DNA from: Acidimicrobiia bacterium
GTDB lineage: Bacteria; Actinomycetota; Acidimicrobiia; Spongiisociales; ZC4RG35
Reading direction: 5' to 3'
Assembly: GCA_035512955.1 (NCBI GenBank)
Contig: DATKCZ010000027.1
Span: 40,949-104,948 of the forward strand
DNA length: 64,000 nt
The notes under the pieces were generated by a model that did not search any database, was not told the DNA's origin, and saw nothing but the letters and a program-made list of their open reading frames with translations. This document shows, piece by piece, positions 4,144 through 36,730 of the stretch (its first letter is position 1; the number at the start of each line of letters is the position of its first letter). The translations under genes and the position numbers were made by a program.

Positions 4144-5910
4144 TCAGACGGGCTCTGGGACGAGCACGTCTGCGGTATTCGAGGCCAGTGGGAGAGCGAG
4201 CTCGAAATGGTGCTGTCCATCGCGCGAAACATAGGTGAGCGTGCCATCCATCATCTCGGCGAGTTGTCTGGAGACAGCGAGGCCGATGCCAACTGAACCA
4301 GGCTGGGTGGGCGACTGGGCGCTCCGGTAGTACCGCTCGAAGATCAGCTTGGCCTCGTTCTCCGCCACCCCTGTCCCGTTGTCGGTCACCACCACCGTCG
4401 CCATGTCGGCGTTCTCACGGATGGTGACGATGATCTGGTCACCACCGTACTTGATGGCGTTGGTGACCAGGTTGCGGATGACCTGGCGGACCCTGAGCGG
4501 ATCGGCCCAGGCGGTCAAGGCTTGCGTCTCGAACCTGACCGTCTTCTGGTCATGGGTCGACTCACGCAGCCCTTCGAGCACTCGCTCGACCTGATCGCGC
4601 AGATCGATGGTCTCGGCGCGGATCGAGAGGTTGCCGAAATCGGCCCTTGAGGCCACCAACAGGTCCTCGACCAGCTCGGCCAGCTCCCGGCTCTGAACTG
4701 CGATGATCCCACAGAGCTCGTCGAGCTCGTCCCCCTTCATCGTGGCCCCACTGGAGACGATCTCTTCCGAAAGCCCCACGATCGCGGTGAGCGGGGTCCT
4801 GATCTCGTGAGACACCGACGCCAGGAGCTTGTCCTTGGAGTCGTTGGAGGCCCGCAGGGCCTCGGCGTCGTCTTGTCGTCGCCAATAGGCTCCCACCATG
4901 TCTGCGGCCCGCCACAGGGTCTGAATCTCGTCGTAGGACCAACTTCGCTCCTTGGTGTACTCGACGAAGCCGATGGTTCCCCTGAACTCCTCACCGATGA
5001 AGATGGGCACGCATAACTCGGAGAGAATGTCATCTCGTTCATAGAGCTCGCGTTCGGCCCCGATCAGATCGCTGGTGTGGATGACGGAGGCCTTGCCCAG
5101 GCGGAGCGTCTCGAATGTGGTCGGGATCGAGGTGTATCGACCGACCCGCCATCCGTTTCCGGTCTCGTCTCCATGGGCGGAGGCACTGGCGACGATCTCC
5201 CAACCGAGACCGTCCCCCATGTCGATGGTGCGATCGACGTATGCGTAGTCGGCGTCGGTGGCCTCGAACATCGCCCGAACCGCCTCGTGGAGAGCGAACG
5301 AGTCGGGATGGACCAACAGTGCTTCCGAGCACCGCGCCACGGCATCCTGGAGACGTCGCGATCGGTCGTAGGCCCGGATTGCCGAGGTCAGCTGGTCGTA
5401 GAGCTCGGCGACGAGAGCAGTGGTGAAGATGACCCCGGCGACCGCGACGACGACCCTGACCCCCATCGCATCGATCGGGTCGCCGGTGAGGACCCCGACG
5501 GTGATGACCCAGGCCGCGATGCAGGAGGCCAGACCCCCCGCCCAGACCAGCCTGCTGCCTATCGACAGGGTGCCGGCAAGGACCGCGAACAACATCATCA
5601 AGCCGTAGGCCGTGCCAAAGTCGAACGAGGTCACGTCGGCGGCGAAGAGCGACTCGATGATGACCAGGGAACCGATGAAGCCCATCGCACCGAGGACGAG
5701 ATGTACCGCCCTGGGCTCCGCCGACCTGGCGACCACGATTGCCCAAATCATGAACACCAACGGACCGACCAGCCGGGCCAGAGCAGCCGTCCCGCCTTCC
5801 TGGGCGCGTGCGTACTCGACGACGGCCACAAACGGCAACGTCGTCGCCAGGAGCACAGCCACATAGCGATGGAACCGCTGTCGCGCCGCCACATGGGCGC
5901 TTGATCTCAC
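4144..5910 (-). CDS. Membrane-bound sensor histidine kinase (multi-TM + GAF + HisKA + HATPase)
   Basis: About 6 TM helices; GAF-like SELCVPIFIGEEFRGTIGF; H-box VSHEIRTPLT; N box NLVTNAIKY; G boxes DNGTG and GIGLAVS. Confidence 0.9.
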   Translation of the reverse strand: MRSSAHVAARQRFHRYVAVLLATTLPFVAVVEYARAQEGGTAALARLVGPLVFMIWAIVVARSAEPRAVHLVLGAMGFIGSLVIIESLFAADVTSFDFGTAYGLMMLFAVLAGTLSIGSRLVWAGGLASCIAAWVITVGVLTGDPIDAMGVRVVVAVAGVIFTTALVAELYDQLTSAIRAYDRSRRLQDAVARCSEALLVHPDSFALHEAVRAMFEATDADYAYVDRTIDMGDGLGWEIVASASAHGDETGNGWRVGRYTSIPTTFETLRLGKASVIHTSDLIGAERELYERDDILSELCVPIFIGEEFRGTIGFVEYTKERSWSYDEIQTLWRAADMVGAYWRRQDDAEALRASNDSKDKLLASVSHEIRTPLTAIVGLSEEIVSSGATMKGDELDELCGIIAVQSRELAELVEDLLVASRADFGNLSIRAETIDLRDQVERVLEGLRESTHDQKTVRFETQALTAWADPLRVRQVIRNLVTNAIKYGGDQIIVTIRENADMATVVVTDNGTGVAENEAKLIFERYYRSAQSPTQPGSVGIGLAVSRQLAEMMDGTLTYVSRDGQHHFELALPLASNTADVLVPEPV

Positions 5911-33964: not shown

Positions 33965-34026
33965 TCTTGCCCACCCCACGCCGCCAGGGTCCAGACCAGG
34001 AGGGCAATGGCGAGAGGGAGCCTCAT
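33961..34026 (-). CDS. 21-aa hydrophobic peptide MRLPLAIALLVWTLAAWGGQD (microprotein or truncated gene remnant)
   Basis: ATG overlaps the moaA stop (ATGA); its TAG shares CTAG with the fbpC stop on the other strand; a single TM-like helix. Confidence 0.4.
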   Translation of the reverse strand: MRLPLAIALLVWTLAAWGGQD

Positions 34027-35030
34027 CCGCCGATGTAGGACATCTCGACCGGGACCGCGAGACGGGAGGTGTTCGAGGAGCGGACCTCTGAGTAGCGGTC
34101 GTCACGCTTCCCCCAGACCTCATCGATGGTCGCCCCGACGTCTCCACCGGACCGGATCACCTCACGCAGGCTGGTTCCCGACGATGCAAACAGACAGGTG
34201 TACAACGAGCCTTCGGCCGAGATCCTGGCCCGGGTGCAAGATCCGCAGAACGGCTTGGTCACGGAGGCGATCACCCCCACCTCCCCCTGGCCGTCGAGAT
34301 ACCTGAAGCGATTCGCCACCTCGCCGGGATAGTTGGGCGGCACCGCCTCCAACGGAAACTCGGCGTTGATCGCCTCGATGATCCGATCGGCGGGCACCAC
34401 ATCGTCGAGACGCCATCCGTTGGTGTTACCCACGTCCATATACTCGATGAAGCGTACGATTTGGCCGGTGCCACGGAAGTGACGGGCCATGTCGACGACG
34501 GCGTGCTCGTTGACCCCCCTCTTGATCACTGCGTTGACCTTGACCGGGCCCAGCCCGCACTCCGATGCCACCTCGATCGCCCTGAGGACCGTCGCCACGG
34601 GAAAACCGACATCGTTCATCTTCTGAAAAGTGGGATCGTCCATCGCGTCGAGGCTGACGGTGACCCGGTCGAGCCCGGCGGAGGCCAGAGCCTCGGCCTT
34701 CCTCTCGAGAAGAGACGCATTGGTCGTCAACGTCAGGTCATGGACCCCTTCGACCGTGGAGATCATCCCGATCAGATCTTCGATCCCTTTGCGGAGCAAC
34801 GGCTCGCCACCGGTGAGCCTCGCCTTGGTGACCCCGCGGGCGACGAACTGACCCACCACCGCGGTTATCTCTTCGAAGGTGAGCAATTGGTCCCGGGGCA
34901 GGAACTCGTAACCGGGCCCGAACACCTCCTTTGGCATGCAGTAGGTGCAGCGAAAATTGCATCGGTCGGTCACCGAGATCCTGAGATCCCGCAACTGCCG
35001 ATCGAACAGATCGGTGGCGACTGCCATCAC
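34023..35030 (-). CDS. moaA: GTP 3',8-cyclase
   Basis: LRISVTDRCNFRCTYCMP (radical SAM), FCGSCTRARISAEG, C-terminal MSYIGG. Confidence 0.97.
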   Translation of the reverse strand: MMAVATDLFDRQLRDLRISVTDRCNFRCTYCMPKEVFGPGYEFLPRDQLLTFEEITAVVGQFVARGVTKARLTGGEPLLRKGIEDLIGMISTVEGVHDLTLTTNASLLERKAEALASAGLDRVTVSLDAMDDPTFQKMNDVGFPVATVLRAIEVASECGLGPVKVNAVIKRGVNEHAVVDMARHFRGTGQIVRFIEYMDVGNTNGWRLDDVVPADRIIEAINAEFPLEAVPPNYPGEVANRFRYLDGQGEVGVIASVTKPFCGSCTRARISAEGSLYTCLFASSGTSLREVIRSGGDVGATIDEVWGKRDDRYSEVRSSNTSRLAVPVEMSYIGG

Positions 35031-35161
35031 CCGACAAGCCTAAGCAACTGGCACCGATACGCCGGATGCAGGACCAGGCGTCGTCCGGGTTGGGCCCAAC
35101 GGCCCACACAGGAACTCTCCTCACCGATCGATGGTTGGGGACCAACCGTGGGAACCGTCGA

Positions 35162-35341
35162 ATGCGTCAAGTGAAACACGGCCGTCATGAGCGGAGCGAG
35201 TGCCGGCATCGCAAGAAGAAGATCCACGAGACCGCGGGTCTCCGCCGCACCGTGTGCCCGAAATGCAGGAGCGTCACCGTCGACTTCATCCACGACGTAT
35301 TCGCCGAGGCACAAGAGCAGCTGCGACGATTGACTGACTAG
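35162..35341 (+). CDS. Small Cys/His (putative zinc-ribbon) protein, paralog 1
   Basis: MRQVKHGRHERSECRHRKKKIHETAGLRRTVCPKCRSVTVDF...; motif aligns without gaps to the next ORF. Start is uncertain (35066 is possible). Confidence 0.65.
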   Translation: MRQVKHGRHERSECRHRKKKIHETAGLRRTVCPKCRSVTVDFIHDVFAEAQEQLRRLTD

Positions 35342-35402
35342 TCACAATGAGTCGATCGACGATGGCACCCAAGACCGTGGCGCCAAGACCGATCAAGAGA
35401 CC

Positions 35403-35591
35403 ATGACATTCAGCAGCAGGGCCAGACGGCGTGCCATTTACGACTGCACCCATGAGACCACGGTGCAAACCGAGATCTCCGGTCTCAGGCGGTCGGTGTG
35501 CGAGACGTGTGGTCATGTCAGCTTCGAGTACGTCGCGAACCACCTCAAGCCCGAGCAGATCGAGGCCGTTCAGGCCGCATCGTCCAACTGA
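35403..35591 (+). CDS. Small Cys/His (putative zinc-ribbon) protein, paralog 2
   Basis: MTFSSRARRRAIYDCTHETTVQTEISGLRRSVCETCGHVSFEY...; same C-x-H-x6-E-x2-GLRR-[TS]-V-C-x2-C motif. Confidence 0.7.
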   Translation: MTFSSRARRRAIYDCTHETTVQTEISGLRRSVCETCGHVSFEYVANHLKPEQIEAVQAASSN

Positions 35592-36730
35592 GCGCGCCAG
35601 GTCGCCATCCACGCGCCGAGACCGAGGGGTAGCACCGCCAACGGCACCAGCCAACCCACCCAAGGCAGGTACCAGACCAACCCGACGAGGATCGAGCCGG
35701 CCATGATCGCCCCGTAGAGGTCGAACCGTCTGAAGAGAGCGCCACCCAACCATCCGACGGTGGGAGCCCCCGCCACCAGGCTCAGACCGAAGGCGAGACC
35801 CACCAGTGCGAGGACCAGCGGAGCCAGCACCGCGAGCAGGGGGAAGGCCGCCGCCGCCGGCGCCAGACCAAGCACCAGCCCCGTGACCAGCATCGCCAAC
35901 AACGGAGACGACAGGACCAGGGCGCCGGCCAGCCACCTGCGCAACGGGGCCCTACCCACTTCGGCGATTGCCTGACCTGTCCTCCGTGGCCAACCGTAGG
36001 CGGCGCTCAACGCGGCCACCGAGAGGAACAAGACCACCATGAAACGGCCGAGGAGCCCGAGCGCCCTGACCCGGAGGTTGGGGGGCAGCGGTGTCTTGTG
36101 CGCCACGGTGCCGGCGACCTCGCCGAGCTCCAGTCCCTGGGCCTCACGATCGGAGCGATAGCCCAGGTCTCCCCCCACCGTGAGACTCTCCACCACCGTG
36201 AGGCGCGCGGTCGACACGTCGACATCGCCGGCGATCGTCCCGGCCAGTTCGAGGTGGCGGGGTGTCCCGGTGAGGTCGGCCCCTATCGCACCGAGGAGCT
36301 CGGCGTTCCACGCCCACATCAACACGTCACCGGCGACCCTGGACGACGCTGAGAGCTCGGCGTCGAAGACCGCTGCCACGACATCTCCTGCCACCACACC
36401 GGTGATGGTGAGACGGTTGGCGGACACCCGCAGCGAGTCTCCGATCTCGCCGTTGACCGTGATCCTCGGGGTGAGCGCCACCACCGATCCGGTTATGGTC
36501 CCGTCGATGACGATCTCCTCGGCGGCGAACGCGATCAAGTCGCCTTCGATGGTCCCTTCGACCAGAACCCGGATCGCCCCCGCATAGAGATCGTCGGGGA
36601 AGACGTCGTCCTCGCGAATGATCACGAACTCGGCGTTCGAGGTCTCGGCAGCGAGCACCGGTGCAGACATGCCGAAGAGCAGCAACCCGGTGACCACGGC
36701 GAGCAGCGCCTTGTCAGAGCGGGAGCGCAT
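35570..36730 (-). CDS. Secreted beta-helix (bactofilin/polymer-forming-like) domain plus multi-TM membrane protein
   Basis: Signal peptide, repeated (I/V)xGx(I/V)xGD(V/L) beta-helix turns, then about 5-6 hydrophobic helices. Start overlaps the nuoN stop. Confidence 0.7.
   Translation of the reverse strand: MRSRSDKALLAVVTGLLLFGMSAPVLAAETSNAEFVIIREDDVFPDDLYAGAIRVLVEGTIEGDLIAFAAEEIVIDGTITGSVVALTPRITVNGEIGDSLRVSANRLTITGVVAGDVVAAVFDAELSASSRVAGDVLMWAWNAELLGAIGADLTGTPRHLELAGTIAGDVDVSTARLTVVESLTVGGDLGYRSDREAQGLELGEVAGTVAHKTPLPPNLRVRALGLLGRFMVVLFLSVAALSAAYGWPRRTGQAIAEVGRAPLRRWLAGALVLSSPLLAMLVTGLVLGLAPAAAAFPLLAVLAPLVLALVGLAFGLSLVAGAPTVGWLGGALFRRFDLYGAIMAGSILVGLVWYLPWVGWLVPLAVLPLGLGAWMATWRAQLDDAA

Follow-up and report, generated by a model that had tools for sequence, protein, structure and literature searches.

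The window analysed here, a stretch of 64,000 nucleotides from an Acidimicrobiia genome of 2.1 Mb and 65% GC, contains two short open reading frames with matching cysteine and histidine residues in the gap that separates moaA from the end of the nuo operon. The questions raised by this locus are whether the two frames, termed A and B, are genes, how old the pair is, and what their products might do. A preliminary description of the sequence had placed both frames on the plus strand, divergent from moaA, and this arrangement was confirmed. The genes of the locus are as follows.

34023-35030, minus strand: moaA (GTP 3',8-cyclase), divergent neighbour of A and B
35162-35341, plus strand: ORF A, 59 amino acids (ATG 35162, TAG 35339-35341)
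35403-35591, plus strand: ORF B, 62 amino acids (ATG 35403, TGA 35589-35591)
35570..36730, minus strand: gene for a bactofilin-like membrane protein of 386 amino acids, convergent with B, at the end of the nuo operon

The locus and its conservation

The full gene order is moaA (minus), A and B (both plus), the bactofilin-like membrane gene (minus) and nuoN (minus). The same slot is occupied in 16 other genomes of the genus, which together with the window make up a syntenic set of 17 loci. B is present at 17 of 17 loci and A at 10 of 17; since A is missing from the other 7, the two do not form an obligate pair. They are probably transcribed separately. Both A and B are missing from one genome (G003), although it still has nuo, and in another (L027, G013:C156) an insertion into the pair leaves ∼3 kb between A and B. 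MoaA is 82–88% identical across the genus, its orthologues contain Radical_SAM and Mob_synth_C domains, and the protein encoded in the window has the C-terminus ...MSYIGG; judged by these features, the neighbour is a canonical MoaA and not a peptide maturase. The 386-residue membrane protein has an orthologue with a faint Bactofilin match. The 3' end of its gene overlaps that of B by 22 nt (35570-35591), and in other lineages the A-type gene and its convergent neighbour likewise overlap at their 3' ends, by 4–38 nt.

Two strings of 30 residues, one from each frame, align without gaps exactly as claimed in the preliminary description, and A matches B at E = 3e-7 by BLASTP. Common to both is the pattern C-x-H-x15-C-x2-C together with an invariant glycine and an invariant arginine. 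Translation of the 2.1-Mb genome in six frames yields the bare pattern no more than 7 times, 5 of them in family members, so that two copies lying 240 nt apart are not a matter of chance. The predicted ligands are C14, H16, C32 and C35 in A and C15, H17, C33 and C36 in B.

The reading frame, the start codon and the four ligands are kept across dozens of species. Protein-level selection had been suggested from the two sequences alone and is now supported by median pairwise dN/dS values of 0.15 (A) and 0.38 (B), calculated with synonymous sites near saturation. A orthologues at the 10 syntenic loci that have the gene are 47–78% identical and B orthologues at all 17 are 40–61% identical. The GC content is 0.73 at codon position 3 and 0.46 at position 2 in A, and 0.79 and 0.49, respectively, in B; this large excess of GC3 over GC2 is what marks coding sequence at a genomic GC content of 65%. 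From these comparisons we judge A and B to be real coding genes under purifying selection.

The conserved protein sequence starts about 12–14 residues ahead of the first cysteine. In relatives of A, a Shine-Dalgarno-like GAGGAG or GGGAG lies 6–9 nt ahead of the ATG, while the window has a weaker site (listed below). A longer version of A, of 91 residues from an ATG at 35066, is unsupported, as both the conserved protein sequence and the Shine-Dalgarno-like site fit the ATG at 35162. The product of A is very basic (pI 10.2; 11.3 for the first 36 residues) and is predicted to end in an acidic helix, DVFAEAQEQLRRL. In B the N-terminal flank is basic (SRARRR) and the tail hydrophilic and variable, while the protein as a whole is near neutral (pI 6.8).

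A lineage-restricted family with six subfamilies

To the profile of the family, searched against 1.84 billion representative proteins with a cut-off of E ≤ 0.001, about 376 clusters at 50% identity gave a match, and all of these proteins are small. Among the best 150 of the 376 clusters, 142 have the exact C-x-H-x15-C-x2-C pattern and 4 have it with slightly varied spacing, the remainder being 3 N-terminal truncations and 1 repetitive false positive; all 146 full-length relatives among these best matches thus keep the four ligands. When 33 copies from the genus are aligned, six columns prove to be invariant (C, H, G, R, C and C). The 'GLRR' patch that the preliminary description had singled out as conserved does not hold up as such, since only its glycine and one arginine are invariant. 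A basic flank is found in every subfamily. Members with a name are all designated 'hypothetical protein' and come from Acidimicrobiia metagenome-assembled genomes, mostly in soil catalogues.

Homologues with a conserved frame and Cys/His pattern, proposed earlier as a check on the family, were found from the level of the genus to that of the taxonomic family. Among 40 related genomes searched, all 21 other genomes of the genus have matches, with 3–10 copies per genome, and the genome of the window has 6. Across the class, 39 of 251 genomes match; most belong to the same taxonomic family as the window, with weaker matches in a few sister families of the order. Across the phylum, 4 of 301 genomes match at E ≤ 1e-5, all of them inside the same taxonomic family. 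The family is restricted to one taxonomic family of uncultured Acidimicrobiia, with few or no matches outside it.

A maximum-likelihood tree resolves six subfamilies, A to F, each monophyletic, with A, B and C grouping together (support 92/92). The genome of the window has members A, B and C (contig C13), E (C37) and F (C36) and a degenerate copy (C9). This last copy (C9:9914-10144, minus strand) retains G..RRVCETCG but no longer has the C-x-H knuckle, perhaps as a paralogue in decay. Because A and B fall into separate monophyletic subfamilies, they are not recent tandem duplicates. Hence the paralogy of the pair, asserted at the outset, stands, and on the evidence of the tree A and B are old paralogues that represent two of the six subfamilies. 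The preliminary description had overlooked the six-branch family, with its 3–10 copies per genome, as well as the promoter-like signals that B has of its own.

Predicted fold

In the AlphaFold2 models of both proteins, three antiparallel strands form a sheet and a helix makes up the C-terminus. The mean pLDDT is 79 for A, from an alignment of 126 sequences, and 68 for B, from 24 sequences. In the model of A the strands span residues 20–24, 27–31 and 38–42 and the helix residues 46–58. The C-x-H motif immediately precedes strand 1, and C-x2-C connects strand 2 with strand 3, so that the ligands are placed as in a zinc ribbon. A and B are therefore both predicted to be zinc ribbons, in agreement with the layout that had been recognized from the motif, and structure prediction, which had been named as a further check, bears that layout out.

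Foldseek searches of the PDB with the two models returned nothing at E ≤ 0.001. The best neighbours were generic zinc ribbons, namely Elf1/ELOF1 (E = 0.16), aIF2-beta, Brf1 and Thermus ZifS, with E-values of 0.16–2 and TM-scores of 0.3–0.46. All have the three-stranded ribbon topology in common with A and B, and Elf1 is, in addition, basic in its N-terminal stretch and acidic towards the C-terminus; however, all four use four cysteines, and the likeness goes no further than the generic fold.

Comparison with known families

No Pfam or NCBIfam model matched A, B or the other members tested above its cut-off. The sole sub-threshold match of A and B was to Zn_ribbon_8/FmdB (PF09723, TIGR02605), with A scoring 14.5 bits against Zn_ribbon_8 (Pfam cut-off 34.4) and 12.8 bits against FmdB (NCBIfam cut-off 31.3) and B matching neither model. 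PADLOC gave nothing at E ≤ 1 and all PHROG matches were at E ≥ 0.02, so that assignment to an anti-phage defence or phage protein family was rejected. A small sequence profile searched against the PDB matched only Fur (2w57; E = 0.43, over 27 residues around C-x2-C), and a profile of 126 sequences matched nothing. A and B were rejected as members of the Fur family, which would call for a significant match together with an N-terminal winged-helix domain. A zinc-binding anti-sigma factor (ZAS, zf-HC2) was also considered and rejected, as such factors have H-x3-C-x2-C in a helical domain, whereas A and B lack that motif, are predicted to have a core of beta strands and gave no match in Pfam. Nothing was found on the A/B family in the literature. 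The claim of an unannotated family of small proteins with an invariant Cys/His pattern is therefore upheld, in that no database family covers A or B.

Three known families merit closer comparison. FmdB/Ruc proteins (M. tuberculosis Rv0991c), like A and B, are small and cytoplasmic and have one N-terminal zinc ribbon with ∼15–17 residues between the knuckles; a further point of resemblance, seen in B, is the variable hydrophilic tail behind the ribbon. In contrast to FmdB, A and B have C-x-H in place of C-x2-C as their first knuckle and lack both the MPxYxY start and the FKGxGFY motif, and the family is multi-copy and confined to one lineage. Comparison of the family with the genus's own FmdB proteins by hhalign gave a probability of 11%, and a separate bona fide FmdB/Ruc-type gene is present in the window genome and in 11 of the 12 other genus genomes searched. 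The single FmdB/Ruc-type gene of these genomes (C44:17956-18075; L072-L087) encodes C-x2-C...H-x2-C in place of four cysteines.

NrdR, in which a bacterial zinc ribbon serves as the DNA-binding part of a repressor, resembles A and B in the arginine-bearing strand that leads into the second knuckle (G..IRRRReC..CGhRFtTYE in NrdR versus G..R.VCE.CGhVS..Y here). However, hhalign gave only 25% probability over 16 columns between the family and the zinc ribbons of the genus's NrdR proteins. NrdR (TIGR00244) also differs in its longer hairpin, with 24 instead of 15 residues between the knuckles, in its C-x2-C first knuckle and in its obligatory ATP-cone. At 59 and 62 residues, with no ATP-cone and no NCBIfam match, A and B were rejected as NrdR proteins.

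The likeness to Wbl proteins is one of organization: in both cases about six small metal-binding paralogues per genome, in one lineage, fall into orthologous groups of their own. Wbl proteins are helical and bind a [4Fe-4S] cluster through four cysteines. There is no sequence similarity between the two families, and A and B were rejected as Wbl proteins since they have only three cysteines and no Whib match, with true Wbl genes present elsewhere in the genome. As 3–7 Wbl genes per genome are already present, the zinc-ribbon family is an addition to them and not a replacement.

Subfamilies and their gene contexts

The subfamilies share the ribbon and differ in what surrounds it. Subfamily A combines a basic ribbon with the helix DVFAEEQxQL, and subfamily B starts with MTLNFRSKRR and has a variable, often acidic tail. 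Subfamily C proteins have two domains in ∼120 residues, the second of which (C-x2-C...C-x2-HAW...WVPIRID) is 68–85% identical over ∼100 clusters and is matched by no Pfam model. D genes are usually divergent from C genes, and an R-x-QF-x-R motif is common to D and F. Subfamily E ends in LPKAAGL, and its gene lies upstream of an S9 peptidase. The sequence CTAGTC upstream of F-type genes was discarded as a signal, since it mostly consists of the stop codons of preceding genes.

In several genera a gene for a methylmalonate-semialdehyde-type aldehyde dehydrogenase follows shortly after the C gene. The C gene of the window genome is

C13:66260-66658, plus strand: C gene (relatives at loci L044, L046, L048, L051 and L034)

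The region between C and D contains the palindrome TGAGTC-N4-GACTCA, and both genes have strong GGGAGG Shine-Dalgarno sites. At C-type starts (L044, L046, L048, L051, L017 and L018), a 20-nt sequence, CCTGTTGGGAGGCAGGTTGA, is invariant at the nucleotide level, and it is best read as the GGGAGG Shine-Dalgarno site plus a TTG start rather than as the peptide 'LLGGRL' given by the ORF finder.

A-type genes are found between moaA and the bactofilin-like gene in three other lineages of Acidimicrobiia as well. In these lineages a gene for an atypical CQPC thioredoxin is located directly upstream of the A-type gene on the same strand, between it and moaA (L036-L039, ∼4475-4843; L130:868-1329; L132:1-516). 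The genome of the window has no CQPC thioredoxin, its only thioredoxin being a canonical WCGPC protein (contig C38). One of the three lineages has another tandem ribbon pair, of 65 and 60 residues, with 18 nt between the genes.

In one cluster of relatives, which IMG names an excisionase-family DNA-binding protein, there is a fusion to an HTH_17-like domain (E = 7e-5, short of the Pfam cut-off). A metagenome protein of 126 residues (P0032) has a C-type ribbon joined to a different C-terminal part ending in ...VSFVKLVPLVGG, which recalls the GG terminus of ThiS/MoaD-like proteins, with no supporting Pfam match. It may be a chimeric gene call.

DNA signals upstream of A and B

Alignment of the upstream regions of A (10 loci) and B (17 loci) revealed several conserved elements.

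35090..35128, plus strand: conserved blocks 5' of A, comprising an inverted repeat TTGGGCC-N5-GGCCCA and a second CCGAT box (35124-35128)
35150-35153, plus strand: weak Shine-Dalgarno-like GGGA of A
35335..35344, no strand assigned: 10-bp palindrome TGACTAGTCA, overlapping the stop codon of A
35362..35373, plus strand: conserved block ATGGCACCCAAG (consensus ATGRCMCCCAAG), kept in 17 of 17 loci
35389..35393, plus strand: conserved CCGAT box, 10–14 nt ahead of the ATG of B, likewise kept in 17 of 17 loci

In the genome of the window, the conserved blocks upstream of A have a 5-nt deletion between them. The ATGRCMCCCAAG block lies 41–44 nt 5' of the ATG of B and occurs in all three reading phases, and any short peptides it might encode are not conserved, so it is a DNA signal and not coding sequence; for the same reasons it was rejected as the true start of B or as a conserved short uORF. 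We suggest that ATGGCACCCAAG represents a −35-like element of a promoter belonging to B and that the CCGAT box at 35389..35393 represents its −10-like element. The spacing of the blocks would then put the transcription start at or beside the ATG, and B is probably translated from a leaderless mRNA, which agrees with its lack of a Shine-Dalgarno site. No sigma-70 consensus promoter was found in 34900-35800 and there was no Rfam match in 34800-35800. The idea of an RNA element in the leader of B was dropped, as the region has neither structure nor covariation.

The palindrome TGACTAGTCA is perfect at 10 of the 17 B loci and deviates by 1–2 bases elsewhere, with an invariant CTAG core. It is retained at loci that lack A, and its distance to the next conserved block is always 24–25 nt. 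It is a candidate operator for a dimeric regulator of B. There are two exact copies in the window genome, and the genome-wide count is no higher than in a reversed-sequence control. The second exact copy (C29:46970-46979) lies 27 nt upstream of an HD-GYP-type gene; beside the exact copies of the palindrome retrieved from other genomes this gene was not found, and the site is probably due to chance. A regulon defined by TGACTAGTCA was accordingly rejected, given that its count equals the control and that the site before the HD-GYP gene is unconserved.

Possible functions of A and B

We tentatively propose, with a probability of roughly 0.4, that A and B are small zinc-dependent, perhaps thiol-redox-sensitive, regulatory binding proteins. 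In the proposed mechanism, a single Zn(II) would be bound jointly by C-x-H, where strand 1 starts, and C-x2-C, which separates strands 2 and 3, and would thereby fix the three-stranded sheet, with the invariant glycine forming the hairpin turn and the invariant arginine placed on strand 2. The ribbon and the basic stretch that precedes it would constitute a shared module for binding nucleic acid or part of the transcription machinery, and each paralogue would owe its particular partner to the subfamily-specific tail, which forms an acidic amphipathic helix in A and is hydrophilic and variable in B. Oxidation of the thiols and release of zinc would switch binding. The redox switch is suggested by the thiolate-rich site together with the thioredoxin found ahead of A-type genes in sister lineages, and a nucleic-acid or transcription target by the basic character of the proteins, the one HTH fusion and the palindromes. 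Against this proposal, neither hhalign nor the PDB profile nor Foldseek found significant similarity to any nucleic-acid- or RNA polymerase-binding protein, so that the binding function put forward in the preliminary description is not established. Moreover, B as a whole is not basic but near neutral, the HTH_17-like fusion is a single cluster with a sub-cut-off score, nothing ties the palindrome TGACTAGTCA to the A and B proteins themselves, and the linkage to thioredoxin and to moaA/nuo could be merely inherited gene order. A bolder version, which we consider improbable, is that the six subfamilies make up an unrecognized lineage-specific class of small zinc-ribbon transcription factors, organized like the Wbl proteins, docking on RNA polymerase, sigma factor or DNA and switched by oxidation. 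In such a class the basic Cys3-His ribbon would dock, the tail would recruit or sense, and the CQPC thioredoxin of the sister lineages would act as reductant.

The main rival to a regulatory binding role is that A and B are redox-activated holdase chaperones of the Ruc/Hsp33 type, in which oxidation of the zinc thiolates would lead to loss of zinc and uncover a disordered tail able to bind unfolding proteins. Ruc has an N-terminal four-cysteine ribbon followed by 7–61 disordered residues (PMC7448276), and the B-type proteins, with a ribbon of ∼45 residues and a variable, hydrophilic, often acidic tail, share its gross layout. Zn_ribbon_8/FmdB is moreover the only Pfam/NCBIfam match, and the thioredoxin next to A-type genes in sister lineages would suit a redox-activated protein. 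However, that match is far below the cut-offs (14.5 versus 34.4 bits) and the hhalign probability is only 11%; the genus genomes with a match, 11 of 12 others and that of the window, already have a bona fide FmdB/Ruc-type gene; the C-termini of A and of C to F are structured or motif-bearing rather than generically disordered; and no chaperone genes occur in any neighbourhood examined. The chaperone explanation thus suits the layout of B and not that of the other subfamilies, and we regard it as unlikely. Less probable again, in our estimate, is that the proteins are not regulators and are instead small accessory or assembly subunits for the neighbouring Moco synthesis or for respiratory complex I. 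Small zinc-ribbon subunits are common in large complexes, and the slot between moaA and the nuo end is conserved throughout the genus, with A-type genes occupying it in at least three further lineages as well; on the other hand, C lies beside an aldehyde dehydrogenase and E before an S9 peptidase, which are unrelated contexts, A is missing at 7 of 17 loci with one genome lacking both A and B, and the orientation of A and B matches that of neither neighbour.

Two further explanations concern the nature of the open reading frames as such. A pair of short cysteine-containing frames beside a radical-SAM gene recalls RiPP precursor peptides matured by the adjacent enzyme, but that enzyme is a canonical MoaA, with Mob_synth_C domain, C-terminal GG and 82–88% conservation. 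The products of A and B also have a conserved folded core with ligands invariant throughout, rather than a leader and core-peptide layout, and paralogues elsewhere have no maturase nearby, making this origin highly improbable. The other explanation is that A and B are untranslated chance frames, as high-GC genomes yield many long spurious open reading frames, and overlapping antisense frames do exist at this locus. Comparative data refute it for all practical purposes: dozens of species retain the reading frame, the start codon and the four ligands, dN/dS values stay well under 1, and GC3 greatly exceeds GC2.

Small proteins are poorly catalogued, and the A/B family is a well-delimited domain that can be annotated and for which there is no existing database model. 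New are the family itself, which is in none of the libraries searched, its unusual C-x-H first knuckle and its lineage-restricted expansion, while its fold class is known; nothing in the family contradicts current understanding. The host lineage consists of Acidimicrobiia from soil metagenomes, with no cultured representative among the matched genomes. The promoter-like blocks of B and its probably leaderless start provide concrete sequences with which transcription signals can be tested in this group. If the proteins are merely structural ribbons, the value of the finding would lie mainly in the definition of a new family. If, however, they are zinc- or redox-switched regulators, they would offer a handle on gene control in a lineage that has neither cultures nor genetics.
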